From a virus (taxonomy: Duplodnaviria; Heunggongvirae; Uroviricota; Caudoviricetes): a stretch of DNA of 27,929 bases. Below, piece after piece: positions 1,055 through 27,793 of this stretch (its first letter is position 1; the number at the start of each line of letters is the position of its first letter). A program made the translations under genes and the position numbers. Location: the IMG/VR virus record IMGVR_UViG_2802429243_000001, one strand, 5' to 3'. The notes beneath the pieces are model-generated. The model was not told the origin of the DNA. It saw only the letters and a program-made list of their open reading frames with translations, and made no database searches.

Positions 1055-3072
1055 ACTGCCTCCTTGATTTGCCTGTCATTTAATTCTTTAAACCAGACTC
1101 TGAAATTTCTGATGTGTCCAAACAAATGACGCGTTCCTGCTGCGGTCTGCCCACCAAACCGGTACGATGTTGCTGTAACTCCAAATATTTTACCATTAAG
1201 GTTTGTTGTATAATTACCATTGCATATTGCATTTACTGATAAATCAGATTTAGCTCTCACACCCACAATGAACCTTTCTCCATCTGAGGCAATTTGTGGC
1301 TGAACCATTCCTACGTTGGCGCTTATCTTTCCTGTTGAAACAAACCCCAGCGATAAATAATTATCATCAATACTGTGCCCTCCAACATCAAATATCCTTG
1401 GCGCAACATTGGGCGGTGTACTCCAGTTCCTGCTTACTTCGCACAATACCGTAAAAGGCCGTGTTGACAGGTTATTCTGCGATGGGATAGTAACCACATC
1501 ACTTGCGCGTGTTGTTGGCATTGTAGTTACAATAAATGACGATGCCGTATTGCCCAGTTCAATTTGCGGCGTCGTCATGGTTAATGTTGAGTCATCATAG
1601 AATGGCTCATTACTTATTTTATTTGTCATATAAAAAGCACAGTTAACGGTATCAATGTCCGTATTAGCTGTATAAGTGGCCTCATAGTAGGTCCACTCGC
1701 CCTGTTGTTCAGCTTTGGCTGTTATAAGGGATGTATTACCGCTTACTGTTGCGATCCGGGTATCCAGATCAAGATAAGAGTCAGCAGAGAAGGTATCTGT
1801 TCCACCAATAATAACTGAAACTCTTAACCTGCATCGTGCTTTAGCGCCTTTAACCCGGCACGAAAAAGTGAAACATTCACCACTTGCCAGCGGGAATCTG
1901 TCTGCTGCAACCACACCATGCACAGTATAGCCACCTGTTGTTCCCACTATACTTTCCGTGGGTGTCACCGTGGCATAATTGAACCCCTGTTTATCAGTGC
2001 CAAATGTTTTATTCAGTGCGGAATGAACAGTCCATGAGTCTGGTTTATTTGAGTTCCTCAGATAATTTGTCCTCTGTCCTTCAATCAATAAGCCATCGCG
2101 CTCAAATCGCGGTTCATCAACTTCAGCAAGCTTGAGTTGGCCGGACTTATTAATATACGTTGCTGTTGAAGCACGTTTAAACTTAACAATCTTGTCGCCT
2201 GGCATTGTTATTTCATCGTCACCAATAACAATCTTTTTATATGATGGCGAAAACCCCGTAATCATATCCAGTGTATCGTTAAACGGTATCCATACATCAG
2301 GCAGCGGCGGCACTATATTCGCATAGGGCTCTGCAGTCACTTCCGCTGCGGCTTCTGCGCGGTCTGCCGCCTTTTCTGCTCGTGTCGCTGCCGACAGAGC
2401 CTCATCCTTTTTCTGCCCGGCCTTTGTTGCGTCTGCTGCGGCCTCCCGCGCTTTTGTGGTGGCGATTCCGGCATTTTCAGCGGCTGACTCTGCATTACGG
2501 CGGGAAGCCTCTTCACTGTCTGCGGAGGCTTCCTCTGACGCACGGGCATTTGTCTCTGAATGTTCTGCCGCTGTTGCTGCATTTTGTGCGGCTGTTTTTG
2601 AAGAAGCTGCCGCTTTCGCGCTGTTACCTGCATTCGTCTCTGATGTTTTCGCCGCGTTCCTGGACGATGCCGCTGCTGTTTCTGATTTCTTTGCTGCCGC
2701 TGCGCTCTGAGAGGCGGCTTCAGCGTTGCGTGCCGCCTCTTCCACCATCTTTTCAAAACGATACAGTGCCTCCGGACGAACATCATCTTCTGTTGCAGCG
2801 CCCAGAAAATCATTCAATGTCCCCGGCTTAGAATCCTCATACACGGTGATGGTCCCGGCATGTGAAGGCGGAAAACCTTCAACCAGCAGGGCGACGCTGT
2901 ACTGGCCATACTCAACATCCATGCTGTAACGTCCGGCTTCATCCGGATTTTCTGAGGCCACCGTGTTCACCACAACTGTGGTGCTGTTACGTTTTGCTTT
3001 GAGCTGAATGGTGCAGTTCTGTATCGGTTTTCCTGCACCGTCTTTCAGCACACCTGAAATCTGTACTGCCAT
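1051..3072 (-). CDS. stf: Side tail fibre protein (Stf-like); lambda-like N-terminal anchor and Ala/Ser/Thr-rich shaft, non-lambda C-terminal distal domain
   Basis: N-terminus MAVQISGVLKDGAGKPIQNCTIQLKA... matches lambda Stf as I recall it, followed by AAxxSETNA-type repeats. Likely start is the ATG at 3072 (GGAG RBS); the ORF track extends to a GTG at 3078. Confidence 0.85.
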   Translation of the reverse strand: MAVQISGVLKDGAGKPIQNCTIQLKAKRNSTTVVVNTVASENPDEAGRYSMDVEYGQYSVALLVEGFPPSHAGTITVYEDSKPGTLNDFLGAATEDDVRPEALYRFEKMVEEAARNAEAASQSAAAAKKSETAAASSRNAAKTSETNAGNSAKAAASSKTAAQNAATAAEHSETNARASEEASADSEEASRRNAESAAENAGIATTKAREAAADATKAGQKKDEALSAATRAEKAADRAEAAAEVTAEPYANIVPPLPDVWIPFNDTLDMITGFSPSYKKIVIGDDEITMPGDKIVKFKRASTATYINKSGQLKLAEVDEPRFERDGLLIEGQRTNYLRNSNKPDSWTVHSALNKTFGTDKQGFNYATVTPTESIVGTTGGYTVHGVVAADRFPLASGECFTFSCRVKGAKARCRLRVSVIIGGTDTFSADSYLDLDTRIATVSGNTSLITAKAEQQGEWTYYEATYTANTDIDTVNCAFYMTNKISNEPFYDDSTLTMTTPQIELGNTASSFIVTTMPTTRASDVVTIPSQNNLSTRPFTVLCEVSRNWSTPPNVAPRIFDVGGHSIDDNYLSLGFVSTGKISANVGMVQPQIASDGERFIVGVRAKSDLSVNAICNGNYTTNLNGKIFGVTATSYRFGGQTAAGTRHLFGHIRNFRVWFKELNDRQIKEAV

Positions 3073-3084
3073 ATTCACTCCACA

Positions 3085-3112
3085 AATAAAAAAGGCACCA
3101 TTTCTGGTGCCC
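3085..3112 (-). terminator. Putative rho-independent terminator between J and stf
   Basis: On the minus strand, GGCACC-agaaat-GGTGCC hairpin followed by TTTTTTATTT, directly downstream of the J stop. Confidence 0.5.
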
Positions 3113-3130
3113 GAATTTGGGTTTTAAAAT

Positions 3131-6100
3131 TCAACTGATACTGATGCCGGCTGTTGATTTCTTCATCACGACAACAAGAAGGTCGCTGATACTGGTCGTT
3201 GGCGTCCAGTTATTTGCACCATATGAAGAAACATTGAAAGTCAGGGTGACATGGCCGTGTCCGGCAGGCATATCAATGACTGATGAAAATACCCTGCTGA
3301 CATCCGTCGCGGGTTGCTGAAAGATTTCCTGTCCGTTCTTCAGCACCTGCAGCTTACAGGTTGAATACCAGTATGACTGTTGGTTGTTGCTGTTGAAGTT
3401 TTCATGCTTACCACCGCGAAACAGAACGGGGGGGATTACTATCTGACGGTCAAAAGCCTGGTCATCGTACACCGTGACCGTTATTGTACCGCTGGCATAA
3501 CTGCTATTTCTCGGAAAGGCTTTTCCCACCGTTTTAACAATATCGCCTTCAATCTGGTTGGCTGACAGTTTTCCCAGAATCCGGCAGTTCTGATTAATCG
3601 TGACATTGTTGAGCGTCCCGGAGTTCGCGTTCACGTTACCGCTGATATCCGCATTTTTCGCCGTCAGCCGCCCGTCCGGTGTCAGGGAAAATGCCGGAGG
3701 ATTACCGCCGCTGGTAATGGTGGGAGCCGTCAGATATTTCAGGAACACTTCATTCATAAATATCTGATCGCCCTGACCAACAAACATCGGCTTTGTATTG
3801 CCATTCGCAGGATTAATCATCGCAATCCTGTCCGCCGCCAGCAGCACCTGACTCTGCATACCGTCAGGGGTATTCTCAATACCGGCACCAATACCCGCGA
3901 TATAAAGGCGTCCGTCCTGCATCTGCTGCAGCTTCACAGCCCACATGCTGTTCAGGTTATTATTTGTATCAACCTGAACCTTCTGTATCTGCTGGATCGC
4001 TGCACTCTGGTCTTCCAGTTTCTTATTGACGGTCTGCGTGATTTCATTGCTGACATCCGTAATGGACGTCCTGATTTCAGCCAGGTCAGGCGCAAGCTGA
4101 CCGTTATCAATCTGCGTCCACAACTCCTGAGCCAGATGGGTTTTCCCTATCTCTCCTTTGAAAAAATCCAGATAGCCGGATGCATCATCACTCGGCTGGC
4201 CAACAGCCTCCACAAATGCCGATTTGCCAACGGTGTTCACACTGCGAATGTAAAAATAATAATCATGGCCCGGTTTGATATTGATACTAGCGGCTATCCA
4301 GTACAGCGCCGTACCAAGATAACGCGCGCTGGCTTCAACCTGCCTGATATCCGCAATCCGCTTTTCCGAGAACCAGAACTCAAACTGTACCGTCGGATCA
4401 TAAACGGCAAGATGCGGCGTTGCGGTTATCTGAAAATAGCCCGGCGTCAGCTCAATCCGCGATGGCGCTGCCGGTGCGGCAATCCGGAACGATACCGACG
4501 CCGGATCCCCCTGCTGCCCCCACGCATTTACCGCCCGGACTGTCAGCCTGTAGTTCCCCAGCGCCAGTTGCCTGAAGCGGTATGTGGTTTCCGTCGTCCT
4601 GGCCGTGCTGACCAGCCGCTCACTGCCGTCATCCGCTGCCACGGTCAGGCGAAGCATAAAGCTCCCCCCCTTCACCACCTTCGGCGTGTCCCAGCGCGCC
4701 AGCACCTGGTATTCCCCGCTGTCTGCGGTGACTTCTGCAGTCAGGTGCTGCACCGCGGGCGGCGTGACACCGTTCACCGTTCCGCTCTGGTCGCCGTCAA
4801 AGTACGCCCCGTTATCCACGATGGCTTCTTTCTCCGGTACATGCTGCACGGCAGTGATGGCATACGTGCCGTCATCGTTCTCACGGATACTCACACAGCG
4901 GAACAGGCGCTGGCGCAGCATCGGCAGCTTCAGCCCCCACACGCTGTATCCGGCAACGCCGTCAGGAACACGGCTCACTTTCACCTTCACACCGTCGGTG
5001 ACGGACTGGACCTCCACGCTGACCGGATTCCCCTGCCCGTCAACCAGGCTTATCAGCGTGGTGCCGGAGGATGGCAGCGTGATTTCACGGTCGAGCGTCA
5101 GCGTCCGGGTCTGGCTGTTCACCGCCAGCACACGCCCACCGATGCTGATACCGGCATAGTCATCATCGCAGATTTCAATGACATCCCCCGGTACATGGCG
5201 AAGCCCTTCAGCACCCACGCTGAAGTCCACGGTCTGCGTTTCCAGCAGCTCCGTTTTAATCAGCCACAGCCCGGCGCGGTGTGCCTGCCCCCGACTGGTA
5301 CAGCCAAAGGCATCCATCTTCGTGACGTTACGGCCGTAACGGGCAATGGCCTGCGTATCCTCCACGAGCTCTGTCGCCGTCTCCCAGCCGTTGTTCGGGT
5401 CAATCCAGTTCACCTCAACGGCATTATGGCGGTCCTTCAGGGCGCTGAAGCTGTAGCGGAACGGCGCGCCATCATCCGGCATCACCACATTACTGCGGTT
5501 ATAGGTCCACACCTTATCTGATGGTCGGTCCTGCACGAACGTCAGCGTCTGCCCGTTCCATACCGGCATACAGCGCATCGCCGAGCAGAAATCACTGAGC
5601 ACATCCCACGCCTTGCGCTGTGTGGTCAGGTACGCATTACAGGTGATGCGCGGCTCCGTGCCGCCAAAGCCGTCCGGCACTGACTGGTCGCAGTACTGGC
5701 CGATGACATACAGCGCCCATTTATCCACATCCGCCGCACCAAGACGTTTCCCCATGCCGTAGCGCGGATGGGTCAGCATATCCCACAGACACCAGGCCAT
5801 GTTGTTGCTGTATGCCGGTTTAAACGTTCCGTCCCAGATACCGCTGTATTGCCGCGTCTGCGGGTTATAATTCGACGGCACCTGCAGAATACGCCCGCGC
5901 AGATGATAATTACGGCTCACCTGCTGACTGCCGAACTGCTCCGAGTCCACCTGCACGCCGACCAGTGCCGTGTTCGGGTAGCACTGTTTCACATCGATAA
6001 TTTCGGTGTATGACGACCAGAGCGTTTTGTTCTGCAGCTGGTCTGTGGTGCTGTCCGGCGTCATCCTGCGCATCCGGATACTGAACGGGCGCGGCGGCAG

Positions 6101-17698: not shown

Positions 17699-21379
<3,681 letters not shown>

Positions 21380-21405
<26 letters not shown>

Positions 21406-21925
21406 TCAGCAACCCCGGTATCAGTTCATCCAGCGCGGCTGCTTTGTTCATGGCTTTGATGATATCCCGTTTCAGGAAATCAACATGTCGGTTTTCCAGT
21501 TCCGGAAAACGCCGCTGCACCGACAGGGGGATCCCGTCGAGAATACTGGCAATTTCACCTGCGATCCGCGACAGCACGAAAGTACAGAATGCGGTTTCCA
21601 CCACTTCAGCGGAGTCTCTGGCATTTTTCAGCTCCTGTGCGTCGGCCTGCGCACGCGTAAGTCGATGGCGTTCGTACTCAATAGTCCCTGGCTGCAGATC
21701 TGTCTCGCTGGCCTGCCGCAGTTCTTCAACCTCCCGGCGCAGCTTTTCGTTCTCAATTTCAGCATCCCTTTCGGCATACCATTTTATGACGGCGGCAGAG
21801 TCATAAAGCACCTCATTACCCTTCCCGCCACCTCGCAGAACGGGCATTCCCTGCTCCTGCCAGTTCTGAATGGTACGGATGCTCGCACCGAAAATGTCAG
21901 CCAGCTGCTTTTTGTTGACTTCCAT
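21380..21925 (-). CDS. Nu1: Terminase small subunit Nu1 (181 aa)
   Basis: MEVNKKQLADIFGASIRTIQNWQEQGMPVLRGGGKGNEVLYD... is essentially lambda gpNu1 as recalled. Confidence 0.95.
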
Positions 21926-22102
21926 TGTTCATTCCACGGACAAAAACAGAGAAAGGAAACGACAGAGGCCCAAAAGTTCGTTTTCAGCACCTGTCGTTTC
22001 CTTTCTTTTCAGGGGGTATTTTAAATAAAAACATTAAGTTACGACGAAGAAGAACGGAAACGCCTTAAACCGGAAAATTTTCATAAATAGCGAAAACCCG
22101 CG
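21926..22102 (-). promoter_or_regulatory. cosB region (terminase-binding R sites and IHF site) between cosN and Nu1
   Basis: Minus-strand sequence from 22114 downward reads GGGCGGCGACCTCGCGGGTTTTCGCTATTTATGAAAATTTTCCGGTTTAAGGCG..., the lambda left end. Confidence 0.8.
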
Positions 22103-22114
22103 AGGTCGCCGCCC
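22103..22114 (-). promoter_or_regulatory. cosN: 12-nt cohesive-end sequence (GGGCGGCGACCT on the minus strand); mature genome ends here
   Basis: Plus strand AGGTCGCCGCCC at 22103-22114; the flanking minus-strand CGATCCGACAGGTTACG matches the lambda right end as recalled. Confidence 0.85.
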
Positions 22115-22313
22115 CGTAACCTGTCGGATCGCCGGAAAGGACCCGCAAAATGATAATAATTATCATCTACATGTCACAACGTGCATCTACGCCATCAAAC
22201 CACGTCAAATAATCAATTATGACGCAGGTATCGTATTAATTGATCTGCATCAACTTAACGTAAAAACAACTTCAGACAATACAAATCAGCGACACTGAAT
22301 ACAGGGCAACCTC

Positions 22314-22547
22314 ATGTCAACGAAGAACAGAACCCGCAGAACAACAACCCGCAACATCCGCTTTCCTAACCAAATGATTGAACAAATTAACATCGCTCTT
22401 GTTCAAAAAGGGTCCGGGAATTTCTCAGCCTGGGTCATTGAAGCCTGCCGCCGGAGACTGTGCTCAGAAAAAAGAGTTTCGCCTGAAGCAAACAAAGAAA
22501 AGAGTGACATTACTGAATTGCTCAGAAAACAGGTCAGACCAGATTGA
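22314..22547 (+). CDS. Small ribbon-helix-helix-like DNA-binding protein (77 aa), AT-rich accessory gene
   Basis: Basic N-terminus (RTRRTTTRNIRF), then two short helices separated by KGSG (NQMIEQINIALVQ / NFSAWVIEACRRRL), typical RHH topology. Opposite strand to the late genes. Confidence 0.55.
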   Translation: MSTKNRTRRTTTRNIRFPNQMIEQINIALVQKGSGNFSAWVIEACRRRLCSEKRVSPEANKEKSDITELLRKQVRPD

Positions 22548-22604
22548 AGCAATTTAGATAATCGTGCAGACTACGCCCCATCATATCACATGGAAGGTAC
22601 TACA

Positions 22605-23015
22605 ATGGCTCAGGTTGCCATTTTTAAACAAATATTCGATAAAGTGCGAAATAATTTAAACTATCACTGGTTTTATTCTGAACTAAAACGTCACAATGTC
22701 TCACATTACATTTACTATTTAGCCACAGAGAATATTCATCTTGTTCTTGAAAACGATAATACGGTTTTAATAAAAGGACAGGGTAAGGTTGTAAATGTAA
22801 GATTTTCAAAAAATAAATGCCTTATAGAAGCCACCTTAAAAGGATTCAAATCAGGAGAGTTATCATTTTACGAATACAGGAAAAATCTTGCTACAGCAGG
22901 GGTTTTCAGATGGATTACAAATATCCACGAAAACAAAAGGTATTACTATACCTTTGATAATTCATTACTATTTACTGAGAACATTCAGAACACTACACAA
23001 ATATTTCCGCACTAA
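22605..23015 (+). CDS. DUF1398 / YbcV-like protein (136 aa), AT-rich accessory gene
   Basis: ATG at 22605 with GGAAGG 7 nt upstream; length and position match YbcV of DLP12 (the lambda putative envelope protein) as recalled. The ORF track start at 22590 has no RBS. Confidence 0.55.
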
Positions 23016-23023
23016 ATCATAAC

Positions 23024-23052
23024 GTCCGGTTTCTTCCGCGCCAGAACCGGAC
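23024..23052. terminator. Inverted repeat GTCCGGTT-13 nt-AACCGGAC directly after the YbcV-like stop; possible terminator
   Basis: Perfect 8-bp stem seen in the sequence; no clean U-tract. Confidence 0.35.
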
Positions 23053-23603
23053 TCGCTGGCATGATGAAATATGTGTACCCGGTAACCCCGGTGTGCATCG
23101 TTTTTGATTATTCCCGCACACTCACGCAGAAGGAATTCCCCGTCGGGCTACGGTCTCTGTTAATACGGGAATACGGCGACGATACAGCGCATGATGTGTC
23201 AGGCTTGAATACCTTTATCCTTTAAAAGGGATATCAGTTAAGTTATCCCGTGTAGGGTATAAGCCATTATCAAAGCCACTCTGTAGGGAATGGCTTTTGT
23301 GATGGCATCACTTACTCTTTACGCTGCTATCCCACTCATCCCGGAATTTTGATGGGTTATTGAAACCTTCTGCTGACATAACAACTCCTTCAATGTTTGG
23401 CTGAAATTAGGATGTCTTTCCATCAGTCCGCCACCACAAAGAATCTTTTTTGCCATAAGGCAGGAGGTTCATCTTTCAGTGGCTGCCGGTGTTATTTCTC
23501 CACTTACTGGCTTGGGTTGTTTCGTGGTACTGCCGTTAACTGGTGGCCCAGAATAAATTCCGGTTTCATTATCAAGCCCACCCGTAAATGGGCTTTGTAA
23601 TGG

Positions 23604-23879
23604 CTACTTCACTTTTGCTTTTGCTTTTGCTTTTGCTTCCGCTCGCTTACGCCGGCGCTCTTCTTTCCTCTCGGCTTTTGCCATGTCCATGAATGCCTGC
23701 ATGATCGAGTTCCGCATCATGTAGCTAACAAAGTGATGATTGACACAGCCGTTGAGGCGCAGCTGCTCGCCAAACTCATCCACCGAGGCCAATGCTTCCA
23801 TCATGCCCTTCTCGCCTTTCATGAACTCTGAGAAGTCGCGCCCCGCTCTGGAGGCGCATTCAATAACCCGATCACTCAT
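23604..23879 (-). CDS. Hypothetical protein (91 aa) with KR-rich and (AK)n C-terminal tail; coupled to the upstream KilA-N gene
   Basis: ATG overlaps the KilA-N gene stop (ATGA at 23876-23879). C-terminus KAERKEERRRKRAEAKAKAKAKVK. Confidence 0.55.
   Translation of the reverse strand: MSDRVIECASRAGRDFSEFMKGEKGMMEALASVDEFGEQLRLNGCVNHHFVSYMMRNSIMQAFMDMAKAERKEERRRKRAEAKAKAKAKVK
23612..23638. repeat. Hexanucleotide tandem repeat (CTTTTG, about 4.5 copies) encoding the (AK)n tail of the 91-aa protein
   Basis: Direct inspection of 23612-23638. Confidence 0.8.
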
Positions 23880-24373
23880 CCCGGAAGCCCGGGGATCGTA
23901 ATCTGCAGCTGGTTAGCCAGGGAGTTAATCTCAGCGACCAACACTGGCTTCGTATAGCGCCATGCTGCCAGCCCTTGTCCGCAGAAGCTCGCCATGTCTT
24001 TCTTCTGGTCAAACTCATGACATTTCATGTTGAGCTGCGCACTTAAGCTGTTGCGATGCTGAAGTTCTCCGGTGAAGTAGTCATCGAGGACTTTATAGGC
24101 CGCGTACTTGAACCCGGGGTTTAACCAAGCCGCATAATCGTAAGCAACAAACTTCCCGCCATATGTTCCACCGTGTACACCGCGCTCAGTAAAAACCACA
24201 GATTCGTGGTTTTTCTCCAGCTCGGCTAAGAACTCTTTGGTCTGCTTGTTTCGCAGGTAGTGGTAAGGCGATTCAGATTCACTTTTACCACTGGCTTTCC
24301 ACATATCAGTGAGGCAGATCATGCCATCTTCACCGATACGAATTGGTTGATTGAAGAGGGTTAATGATTTCAT
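23876..24373 (-). CDS. KilA-N domain protein (165 aa)
   Basis: Pattern IRIGEDGMICLTDMWKASGK...YLRNKQTKEFLAEL...RG.HGGTYG...VAYDYAAWLNPGF fits the KilA-N/APSES consensus; ATG at 24373. Confidence 0.65.
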   Translation of the reverse strand: MKSLTLFNQPIRIGEDGMICLTDMWKASGKSESESPYHYLRNKQTKEFLAELEKNHESVVFTERGVHGGTYGGKFVAYDYAAWLNPGFKYAAYKVLDDYFTGELQHRNSLSAQLNMKCHEFDQKKDMASFCGQGLAAWRYTKPVLVAEINSLANQLQITIPGLPG

Positions 24374-25742: not shown

Positions 25743-25837
25743 AGCCTCACCTCCGCAAATAACGGATGGTGTACACGGTTCGGAACGAAGAGGAAAGGTA
25801 TAGAAGTTACATTAGCGTAAGGCTTGAACATCTATTC

Positions 25838-25868
25838 AAAAAGAAAAACGCCAGCGATTATTCTGGCG
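25838..25868 (-). terminator. Rho-independent terminator between the AraC-like gene and S
   Basis: Minus strand CGCCAG-aataatcg-CTGGCG followed by TTTTTCTTTTT. Confidence 0.55.
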
Positions 25869-25930
25869 TAGCTGAAAGCATCATACAATTATCAAATACG
25901 AAAATTACAAAATCATTAAAACGCATCACG

Positions 25931-26662
25931 TTACATCATGTCTTTTTCTAAAAAAAATCTTGATGAATATTGATGGGGAGGAACACCAAAATATCTTCTG
26001 AAAACACTTACAAAATATGACGTGTTTTCATAACCGCATATCTCAGCAACTTTTCCAACAGAATATAAATTGTAGCTTAATAACCTTTCCGCCATCACCA
26101 TTCGCTCTTCAAGAATTAATTTACTAAATGATAAGCCTTCGTGCTTTAATTTTCTTTTTAACAGACTTTCACTCAGATACAGTCTTGAAGATATATCACA
26201 AAGTCTCCATGTTGCAGATATATCCGTGTGAATAATAGCCTTAACTTTACTTCCTAAACTATTAAGACATCCAAATAAAAAACTTTGCACTATTTTCTCT
26301 GAAGATAAGATAGCAAGACATGCAAGTGATATTTGATTTCTAACAAAATCCACAGTTCTGCCATCACAATTCAAGCATGCAATCAAGTTCTTTAACAATG
26401 AAAAATCTTCACATTCCACCATCAAGTATGCCGGATAAAACCTTCTTACAGAAAAAGGTGAGAGTGTGTTGCTTTTAAAGAAATCATTAACTGTTTTCTC
26501 TTCAACATCTACGATCATTACATGATCTATATTTGATGAAAAAAAATCTTTTAAATTGTAATCAATGAGAACAGCACTTCCTTTTTTAAACAAAATATCT
26601 TCTTTACCAATTCGGACATCAAACGAGTTCAACACCAAAATGATAGAACATATGTATGGCAT
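25931..26662 (-). CDS. AraC-family transcriptional regulator, AppY/EnvY-like (about 243 aa), AT-rich accessory gene
   Basis: C-terminal AraC-type HTH (VGKVAEICGYENTSYFVSVFRRYFGVPPHQY); N-terminus MPYICSIILVLNSFD... resembles AppY of DLP12 as recalled. ATG at 26662 with AGGTGG RBS; the track start at 26671 is a GTG. Confidence 0.75.
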   Translation of the reverse strand: MPYICSIILVLNSFDVRIGKEDILFKKGSAVLIDYNLKDFFSSNIDHVMIVDVEEKTVNDFFKSNTLSPFSVRRFYPAYLMVECEDFSLLKNLIACLNCDGRTVDFVRNQISLACLAILSSEKIVQSFLFGCLNSLGSKVKAIIHTDISATWRLCDISSRLYLSESLLKRKLKHEGLSFSKLILEERMVMAERLLSYNLYSVGKVAEICGYENTSYFVSVFRRYFGVPPHQYSSRFFLEKDMM

Positions 26663-27013
26663 ATTATCCACCTGATATCATTGGGGTTACACCAGGTAAG
26701 TATAGGTGGAAAATCAATATTCGCCAGTTCAACAATAAGGAAAATCTCATTGCATCACAAGTATAAAATTATGTATTTAACTCACAAAGACAAATTATTA
26801 AACCAATCTGTTATATTATATATAGCTGCGTGGAATCATAATATCATATATTTTGACTGGCATGTTTACCAAATTTAAGTTGCATCTCAATGGTTTCTTC
26901 AGCGTAAACAGAGTTTTTATACAAACTGACACTCTGGGTATCATAGTGTAGTTTTTACGATTGTAAATATCCTGTATGCAGGAACTCATCCTTTTGGATG
27001 ATATCGCATACAA

Positions 27014-27793
27014 TTAATTTACCATCAGTCTTAGAGCCAGTTCGTCCGGATAGGGATCGAAGTAATTCTGTGTAAGCAAGTAATCATTAGGATACTCACC
27101 CAGATAATGCTTCAGCAGAGTCAACGGCGCAAGAAGAGGTAATGTGCCAGAACGATAGTTAAGTATAACCTCGCTCAACTCTTTACGCTGGCGTGTACTT
27201 AAGTAGTTACTAAAATACCCCTGTATATGCATCAGCACATTCGTGTGATTTTTACGTGATGCAGGTTTTCTGAGAATCGCCATCAGCTTATCACGATACA
27301 CCTCAAAGTATGATTCAAGATCCGCCCACTCGTGTATTGCAGCCACAAATGGTCCCATATCTTTATAGCCTGTCTGACTATGCGCCAACAACTGAAGCTT
27401 ATAACGACTATGAAAAGCCAATAACTCTCTTCTTGATAATTTCTCCTTGTAAAGGTGATTGAGCTCATGCAAAGCAAAAACTCTTTCAACAAAATTCTCA
27501 CGAAGCACTGGATCATGTAATCGCCCATCCTCTTCAACCGGTAGCCAGGAAAACTTTTCCATCAAAGTGCTCGTAAATAGTCCCACTCCATCTTTACGAC
27601 CTCGATTACCATTTTCATCATAGACACGCACGCGCTCCATGCCACAGCTGGGAGATTTAGCACAAACCACAAACCCCGATACATCCTTTAATTTGTCCAT
27701 ATAAGAACGACTAAACTCTGTCATTCTCTCTGTCACATCCTCATTCTGGTCGTGGCTGAAACACATCCGTATATTTCCTTGCGTCGAGCGCAC
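27014..27793 (-). CDS. DUF523/DUF1722 (YbgA-like) protein, probably 5'-truncated by the adjacent IS element
   Basis: Contains the SPSCG motif and a DUF1722-like C-terminal half (HTNVLMHIQGY...LLAPLTLLKHYL) as recalled for YbgA; the N-terminal part of DUF523 is absent; the reading frame runs open into the IS terminal repeat; the first in-frame start is a GTG at 27793. Confidence 0.55.
   Translation of the reverse strand: MRSTQGNIRMCFSHDQNEDVTERMTEFSRSYMDKLKDVSGFVVCAKSPSCGMERVRVYDENGNRGRKDGVGLFTSTLMEKFSWLPVEEDGRLHDPVLRENFVERVFALHELNHLYKEKLSRRELLAFHSRYKLQLLAHSQTGYKDMGPFVAAIHEWADLESYFEVYRDKLMAILRKPASRKNHTNVLMHIQGYFSNYLSTRQRKELSEVILNYRSGTLPLLAPLTLLKHYLGEYPNDYLLTQNYFDPYPDELALRLMVN

Follow-up and report, generated by a model that had tools for sequence, protein, structure and literature searches.

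The window, by which we mean the whole 27,929-nt stretch of DNA analysed here, is a segment of a lambda-type prophage or phage, reversed relative to the usual lambda map and with its tail and head genes on the minus strand. Two small genes occupy the plus strand 200 bp from cosN, antisense to the terminase genes Nu1 and A (Table 1). Since Nu1, A, Rz, lysozyme and the KilA-N gene all lie on the minus strand, the pair is antisense to the late operon. The cohesive-end sequence AGGTCGCCGCCC has a single exact match in the window (chance expectation 0), 200 bp upstream of the start of the first gene, and the DNA flanking it aligns with the cos regions of lambda, Qin-like and DLP12-like loci. It marks the boundary between the two phage ends, with the pair on the right one and Nu1 and A on the left one. 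On its other side the pair is flanked by a minus-strand 91-aa ORF, the KilA-N gene, Rz and lysozyme. The GC content is 0.31-0.43 across positions 22200-23000, compared with 0.53-0.58 in the structural genes at 19000-21800. The initial annotation had described an AT-rich pair of opposite-strand genes near cos, and its coordinates, strands, base composition and 57-nt spacer are all borne out. A search of the whole window against Rfam returned no RNA family. A 54-aa ORF at 23061-23225, which has no family match, was set aside as probably non-coding.

Table 1. Features of the window in order of position.
Feature	Coordinates	Strand	Evidence or remarks
Terminase A	19480-21405	-	Late operon
Nu1	21380-21925	-	Pfam Phage_Nu1, 3.9e-101
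cosN cohesive-end sequence	22103-22114		AGGTCGCCGCCC, reverse complement of lambda GGGCGGCGACCT
Imperfect inverted repeat	22212-22244	+	ATCAATTATGACG / CGTATTAATTGAT, 85% complementary (repeat search)
ynfO/ylcI-type gene, 77 aa	22314-22547	+	Pfam DUF3950, NCBIfam YlcI_YnfO_N, PHROG 949
Conserved core of the 77-aa protein, residues 13-50	22350-22463	+	RNIRFP-NQMIEQINIALVQKG-SGNFS-AWVIEACRRRL
Perfect palindrome	22532-22540	+	GGTCAGACC, within the last codons of the 77-aa ORF
Shine-Dalgarno-like GGAAGG	22592-22597	+	7 nt before ATG 22605; kept in 5 of 5 aligned relatives
ydfO/ybcV-type DUF1398 gene, 136 aa	22605-23015	+	Pfam DUF1398, PDB 2HH8 match
Hairpin just 3' of the DUF1398 stop	23024-23052	+	RNAfold -13.4 kcal/mol; no T-run
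Strong hairpin followed by TTTTG	23263-23306	+	RNAfold -29.4 kcal/mol for 23240-23310
AraC-family regulator	25931-26671	-	HTH_18, 1.1e-14
DUF1722 / 2-thiouracil-desulfurase-like gene	27014-27793	-	Follows the AraC-family gene

In the product of the first gene, a DUF3950 core is preceded by a basic N-terminal arm and followed by a C-terminal tail of variable sequence. It matches the Pfam model of DUF3950 (PF13132; 2e-20, 72.8 bits against a cut-off of 25) over the full 30 model positions and the NCBIfam model YlcI_YnfO_N (NF041551; 35.2 bits, cut-off 30), while the PHROG group that it matches is annotated as of unknown function. In a 99.4%-identical locus, RefSeq names the gene 'ynfO: YlcI/YnfO family protein'. 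The gene thus combines the profile of the YlcI/YnfO family with its lambdoid, packaging-side and opposite-strand context, and the layout is the same in Qin-like and DLP12-like loci, in lambda and in phage 2851. Among 16 homologues residues 1-49 are invariant or nearly so, and the tail after about residue 50 differs completely between variants. Crude codon counting against phage 2851 gave a ratio of non-synonymous to synonymous changes of about 0.27.

More distant DUF3950 members adjoin Icd-like genes, divergently in the case of the Klebsiella member, or, in satellite-like elements, are transcribed divergently from a cluster of capsid genes. A record deposited as an Enterobacter kobei plasmid (NZ_CP110875.1, p4_SCLZS19, 34.3 kb; L157) appears to repeat a unit of roughly 8.6 kb about four times in tandem, and looks like a small phage satellite in concatemeric form. 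Each copy contains capsid genes; a tail-assembly gene recurs, as does, divergent from the capsid genes, a YlcI/YnfO protein of up to 175 aa, whose DUF3950 domain bears a long C-terminal extension. An integrase is annotated once. A tblastn match in Pasteurella phage Pmp7 (41.5%, E 5e-5) was discarded, as it runs antisense to an annotated repressor gene.

For the second gene, an alternative upstream ATG at 22590 would yield a protein of 141 aa. The start at 22605 is the likelier one, as it is preceded by the GGAAGG element and is the start used by RefSeq in the 99.4%-identical locus; it leaves a spacer of 57 nt after the first gene. The protein covers positions 1-119 of the 119 in the Pfam model of DUF1398 (PF07166; 3.3e-43, 147 bits, cut-off 22) and is 80% identical to E. 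coli K-12 YdfO (PDB 2HH8; 1.4e-69 over 140 residues). These matches uphold the initial assignment of the gene to a YbcV-like DUF1398 protein, present in lambda and DLP12 and without an established function; RefSeq calls it a 'DUF1398 domain-containing protein'. The entry 2HH8 is an NMR structure of YdfO, a small soluble protein deposited as 'hypothetical protein'. The fold of YdfO in this structure consists of two alpha-beta3 halves. A search for fold neighbours with a predicted model of the DUF1398 protein, which was of poor quality, returned none. The family is narrow: of 1.84 billion proteins searched, it accounts for 189 cluster representatives (50% clustering), and many of these are fragments.

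The 77-aa and DUF1398 ORFs are in frame with each other, and the TGA at 22545-22547 is the only stop codon between the first ORF and the DUF1398 start. Databases contain two-domain 'fusion' proteins (P0133, 233 aa and 761 members, and P0134) in which this TGA is read as Trp; most simply, these are gene calls made with a code in which TGA encodes Trp. More speculatively, low-level read-through of the TGA could produce an RHH-DUF1398 fusion protein.

DNA similar to positions 21900-23300 was detected in 4933 of 5426 complete E. coli genomes, at a query coverage of at least 80% in 2491 of them, and in 253 phage records, lambda among them. In 2373 E. coli records the only DNA match was at 60-80%, which is consistent with near-universal ycgX, and on the basis of these matches ycgX appears to be nearly universal in the species. 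E. coli K-12 contains the pair in two prophages, Qin (ynfO-ydfO) and DLP12 (ylcI-ybcW-ybcV), and the window has the Qin order. The pair is, in other words, the known and already named YnfO/YlcI and YdfO/YbcV accessory pair of lambda-like prophages. Rather than a new toxin-antitoxin or defence locus, it is among the commonest accessory pairs of E. coli lambda-like prophages, and a false lead is thereby cleared.

Comparison with named relatives outlined how the two genes are combined. The Qin locus nohA-ynfO-ydfO presents the same order and strands: a Nu1 homologue and cos are followed by a YnfO of 77 aa and, after a short spacer, DUF1398. Its YnfO tail is of the same type and its GGTCAGACC leader is identical, although the DUF1398 sequence differs by some 20-24%, and Qin is a decayed remnant whereas the prophage of the window retains a complete set of lambda-type head and tail genes. 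In lambda, the N-terminal 50 residues of the YlcI-like ORF show two differences from the YnfO of the window, and the order at the right end is the ylcI-like ORF, lambdap79, lambdap78 ('putative envelope protein') and bor. Lambda and DLP12 share with the window the DUF1398 family (76% identity), its leader and the position beside cos. They differ from it by an insert of about 550 bp with an opposite-strand 68-aa gene, which splits the pair in lambda and DLP12-like loci, by a short and different YlcI tail (64 aa), and by the presence of bor after DUF1398, where the window lacks bor and has the 91-aa and KilA-N genes instead.

In Stx-converting phages such as 2851 and BP-4795, DUF3950 (core about 83-85% identical) occupies the equivalent slot opposite the late genes and is followed by the same downstream DNA, small ORF and KilA-N gene as in the window; unlike the window, these phages lack DUF1398, use HNH, TerS and TerL for packaging and carry another DUF3950 tail. 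In phage 2851, DUF3950 stands alone between HNH/terS and the KilA-N and lysis genes, and positions 23073-23306 of the window, just past the DUF1398 gene, are 90% identical to the DNA that follows it there. The 91-aa ORF of the window overlaps the gene for a protein with KilA-N and ORF11CD3 domains by 4 nt (23604-24373, minus strand); its C-terminus is rich in lysine and alanine and it has no family match. The two genes also follow the DUF3950 gene in phage 2851. E. coli YcgX, encoded between bluR and iraM, belongs to the same Pfam family as the DUF1398 protein of the window and has the same length (44% identity), but it is chromosomal, lies away from cos and Nu1 and has no DUF3950 neighbour.

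The two families differ markedly in abundance: tblastn searches of phage records identified DUF3950 in 153 and DUF1398 in 43. At least 110 of the 153 contain DUF3950 without DUF1398, and this excess is made up mostly of Stx-converting phages. The surroundings of DUF1398 were surveyed in one genome per species by searching the flanks, usually 4 kb on each side, with custom HMMs. The cos-proximal copies (identity of 70% or more; L084-L091) all have DUF3950 upstream and Nu1 beyond it, and in the viral loci with a cos-proximal DUF1398 gene DUF3950 lies upstream in 79 of 80. Neither DUF3950 nor Nu1 was detected in the flanks, usually 4 kb on each side, of ycgX-type genes (44-53%) or of the DUF1398 genes of Klebsiella, Kluyvera, Raoultella, Pseudocitrobacter and Salmonella diarizonae (34-39%).

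Loss of the 77-aa ORF from most homologous prophages with retention of DUF1398, a pattern that the initial annotation had singled out, was not found among cos-proximal copies, and the common pattern is the opposite, with the RHH-like gene kept and DUF1398 absent. The RHH-like gene is thus the constant element, and DUF1398 an optional cassette with its own conserved palindromic leader. The locus displays two features of a moron, namely presence/absence polymorphism between collinear phage modules and a deviant base composition. The one example of DUF1398 kept and the RHH core lost was seen in a metagenome-assembled genome assigned to Veillonella parvula (L114, positions 2200-3310), in which a lambda-type DUF1398 gene is preceded by a ybcW-like gene and tail-like remnants are left of a protein whose DUF3950 N-terminal domain is missing.

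Many records match at lambda-level identity. Contigs and 'plasmids' of about 3.5 kb attributed to unrelated organisms (Staphylococcus, Acinetobacter, Xanthomonas, Arcanobacterium, Brevibacillus, Pedobacter and Kitasatospora) carry ylcI-ybcW-ybcV of lambda; they comprise contigs L092-L113 and L126-L128, the PLSDB entries H124-H127 and the phage matches H45 and H46. They resemble the lambda control DNA of sequencing kits (the 3.6-kb control strand used in nanopore sequencing) rather than real replicons. A record named Campylobacter phage CJLB-4 (48,361 bp) likewise matches at this level.

The DNA upstream of the DUF1398 gene was aligned from the window, Qin-like, lambda and DLP12-like loci and one further locus (L114). 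The alignment revealed that homology begins abruptly at AGGTCAGACCAGATTGA, about 75 nt before the DUF1398 start codon, despite unrelated DNA further upstream. The palindrome GGTCAGACC, invariant in the window, Qin-like, lambda, DLP12-like and L114 sequences, opens this leader of about 75 nt, which always goes with the DUF1398 gene and accompanies it, from GGTCAGACC to the start codon, in both gene arrangements. The last codons and the stop of the 77-aa ORF fall inside the leader block, so that the YnfO tail is partly a by-product of the point at which the DUF1398 cassette was joined. As judged from these alignments, DUF1398 and its leader behave as a mobile unit of their own; the RHH-like gene behaves as a second one, which remains at the packaging end. 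The palindrome also coincides with a PdhR site, AAcaGGTcagACCAgaT, reported from SELEX-chip for K-12 ynfO>ydfO (PMC7660256); the same study places a second PdhR site at ybcV<>ybcW.

Signals around the pair were also mapped. The inverted repeat upstream of the 77-aa gene, at a distance of 70-100 bp, is a candidate operator or promoter region only, and conservation of the repeat is uninformative because the region is near-identical in lambda-type relatives. A scan of the plus strand upstream of either gene for the sigma-70 consensus returned no match, and manual inspection yielded weak candidates only. Downstream, the first 176 nt past the DUF1398 stop are homologous to the DNA that follows the DUF1398 gene of lambda. 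The stronger of the two hairpins is terminator-like and lies between the plus-strand pair and the convergent minus-strand genes (91-aa ORF, KilA-N, lysis); a simple terminator scan missed it.

The initial annotation attributed a ribbon-helix-helix (RHH) signature to the first gene; an RHH-like sequence pattern is indeed present, and the fold itself is weakly supported. The successive segments of YnfO, RNIRFP, NQMIEQINIALVQKG, SGNFS and AWVIEACRRRL, fit the strand, helix A, G-x-S/N turn and helix B of the fold, the GSGNFS turn being read from sequence. Alignment with hhalign placed YnfO residues 13-45 in register with an RHH (Arc/CopG/ParD/NikR) profile, at a probability of 17% and an E value of 1.5e-3. 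This profile comprises ten RHH domains, and retrieves Arc, Mnt, omega, AmrZ, CopG, PutA, ParD, RelB, NikR and FitA from the PDB. An AlphaFold (AF2) monomer model, built on a shallow alignment, presents a disordered basic arm and helices at residues 19-32 and 34-52 (pLDDT 83-86), with the RNIRF segment not called as a strand. The best-fitting structural neighbours of this model include the RHH antitoxins MazE6, MazE4, MazE7 and ParD2, at scores that are not significant.

Of the Pfam matches anticipated for the two genes, that to DUF1398 was obtained (3.3e-43), while the 77-aa protein matched DUF3950 alone at E values up to 10, and no RHH model; a search of PDB sequences with a YnfO family profile (hmmsearch) found nothing. 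YnfO resembles RHH regulators and antitoxins (Arc, Mnt, CopG, ParD and the N-domain of MazE6) in its size, its basic N-terminal arm, its alternating strand-like segment, its two helices with a G-x-(S/N) turn and its in-register alignment. It differs from them in lacking a significant sequence or fold score and a conserved partner-binding tail, and its dimerization and DNA binding are putative. Weakly supported by sequence and model, an RHH fold of YnfO is plausible, and should be regarded as probable rather than demonstrated.

The proposal of an antitoxin-toxin or repressor-effector layout had been prompted by a small RHH-like gene that is followed, after 57 nt and in the same orientation, by a slightly larger one. 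If the pair were a type II toxin-antitoxin module, YnfO would be the RHH antitoxin that neutralises a DUF1398 toxin and provides autoregulation, and the module would stabilise the prophage or abort infection. Besides the arrangement itself, this is suggested by the RHH antitoxins among the structural neighbours and by the presence of DUF3950 upstream of all cos-proximal DUF1398 copies examined. However, either gene can occur without the other: DUF3950 persists without DUF1398 in most of the phage records that contain it, and lone DUF1398 paralogues (ycgX of E. coli and those of Klebsiella, Kluyvera, Raoultella and Salmonella) have no RHH gene, usually within 4 kb. In lambda and DLP12 a convergent gene separates the pair, so that DUF1398 cannot be co-transcribed with the RHH gene, as an opposite-strand gene lies between them; RNA-seq work lists ybcW-ylcI as convergent overlapping transcripts in K-12. 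An antitoxin would contact its toxin through the C-terminal tail, but in YnfO this part is hypervariable and some of it is encoded by the DUF1398 leader. Hence neither an obligate adjacent pair nor a conserved toxin-binding region outside the DNA-binding domain, two hallmarks of such modules, is found here. The proteins match no toxin or defence model, and the PADLOC defence models gave no real match to either; a Csx23 match (E 0.025) was disregarded, and a match to HEPN_AbiA_CTD (E 0.014, 15.8 bits) lies below the cut-off of 27. Moreover, ASKA overexpression clones of the K-12 orthologues ybcV and ydfO are viable and show mild phenotypes (PMC2853380, PMC4077768). A toxin-antitoxin module is therefore very unlikely, and the antitoxin-toxin proposal is not supported; a looser repressor-effector reading of the pair may still apply.

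The constancy of the first gene raises another possibility, in which YnfO would be a cis-acting or packaging-linked factor that regulates packaging or late genes or binds near cos, with DUF1398 as unrelated cargo. DUF3950 adjoins two unrelated terminase systems, lambda-type Nu1/A in the window and HNH-TerS-TerL in phage 2851, occurs in capsid-forming satellites and is far more conserved than its neighbours. Against this, the homology with phage 2851 begins at the DUF3950 ORF itself and not in the cos-side DNA, so that no shared binding site is evident, and the gene is retained in K-12 cryptic prophages that no longer package DNA. The CRISPRi map of lambda (PMC10695390) likewise does not flag the same-strand accessory genes lambdap78 and bor as essential, the ylcI ORF not being listed. 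On balance, we consider a packaging role unlikely. For DUF1398, a structural role is implied by the 'head protein' label of PHROG 413 and by the labels 'putative envelope protein' or 'head protein' that several records give to the lambda orthologue. No experimental source was found for these labels, and they are at odds with the transcription of the gene against the late operon, with the dispensability of the lambda orthologue for plaque formation (PMC10695390), with the absence of DUF1398 from most related phages with the same head genes, with the chromosomal paralogues outside prophages and with a solved structure of a small soluble, 'hypothetical' protein. The probability that DUF1398 is a structural protein is accordingly close to nil.

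The best reading of the locus, which we hold to be reasonably probable, is that of an accessory cassette, with expression from the prophage, in which a small regulator is combined with a DUF1398 gene that is mobile on its own and affects host stress physiology. The gene identities, the layout, the distribution, the separability of the two genes and the conserved leader are established here. Under this accessory-cassette reading, the pair would be a standard 'moron' at the right end of a lambda-like prophage, between the lysis genes and cos and directed against the late operon. YnfO/YlcI, a small basic protein whose 50-residue N-terminal domain most likely adopts a dimeric RHH DNA-binding fold, would most likely regulate transcription locally; its gene remains at the packaging end. 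The DUF1398 product would be a non-essential soluble alpha/beta protein, encoded in some phages only by a unit of its own that includes the 75-nt leader. Expression of the cassette probably takes place from the prophage and, in lytic growth, would be overridden by the antisense transcription of the late genes. The probable role of DUF1398 is to modulate the stress physiology of the host and not to kill the cell. A more specific version, in which YnfO would be an RHH repressor that binds near the GGTCAGACC leader or the upstream repeat and, together with host PdhR, gates a DUF1398 effector that alters the stress or phage-resistance phenotype of the lysogen, is distinctly improbable as it stands.

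The available expression data on both families come entirely from K-12 cryptic prophages rather than from the window element, and no mechanism was found in the literature on either family. Transcripts of ylcI, ydfO and ybcV have been detected in K-12, and the lambda orthologue lambdap78 was scored as non-essential by CRISPRi (PMC10695390). Overexpression of ybcV from its viable ASKA clone altered glycogen content (PMC2853380), and ybcV is up in a sabinene-tolerant strain. In exponential-phase cells, an ionic liquid raised ydfO expression 12- to 116-fold (PMC4077768). The same article states at second hand that YdfO overexpression raises oxidative-stress resistance; ydfO was not found in the main text of the paper cited for this claim. 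Although most E. coli strains carry them, both families count among the uncharacterised genes of the species, and the constant RHH-like gene, together with a leader overlapping a PdhR site, offers a starting point for assigning them a function.

A second AT-rich stretch was observed past the lysis genes, with a GC content of 0.31-0.33 over 25800-27000; it encodes the AraC-family regulator and is followed by the DUF1722 gene. As no Q or nin-region genes are visible within the window, this stretch represents either another accessory insertion or the edge of a truncated prophage.
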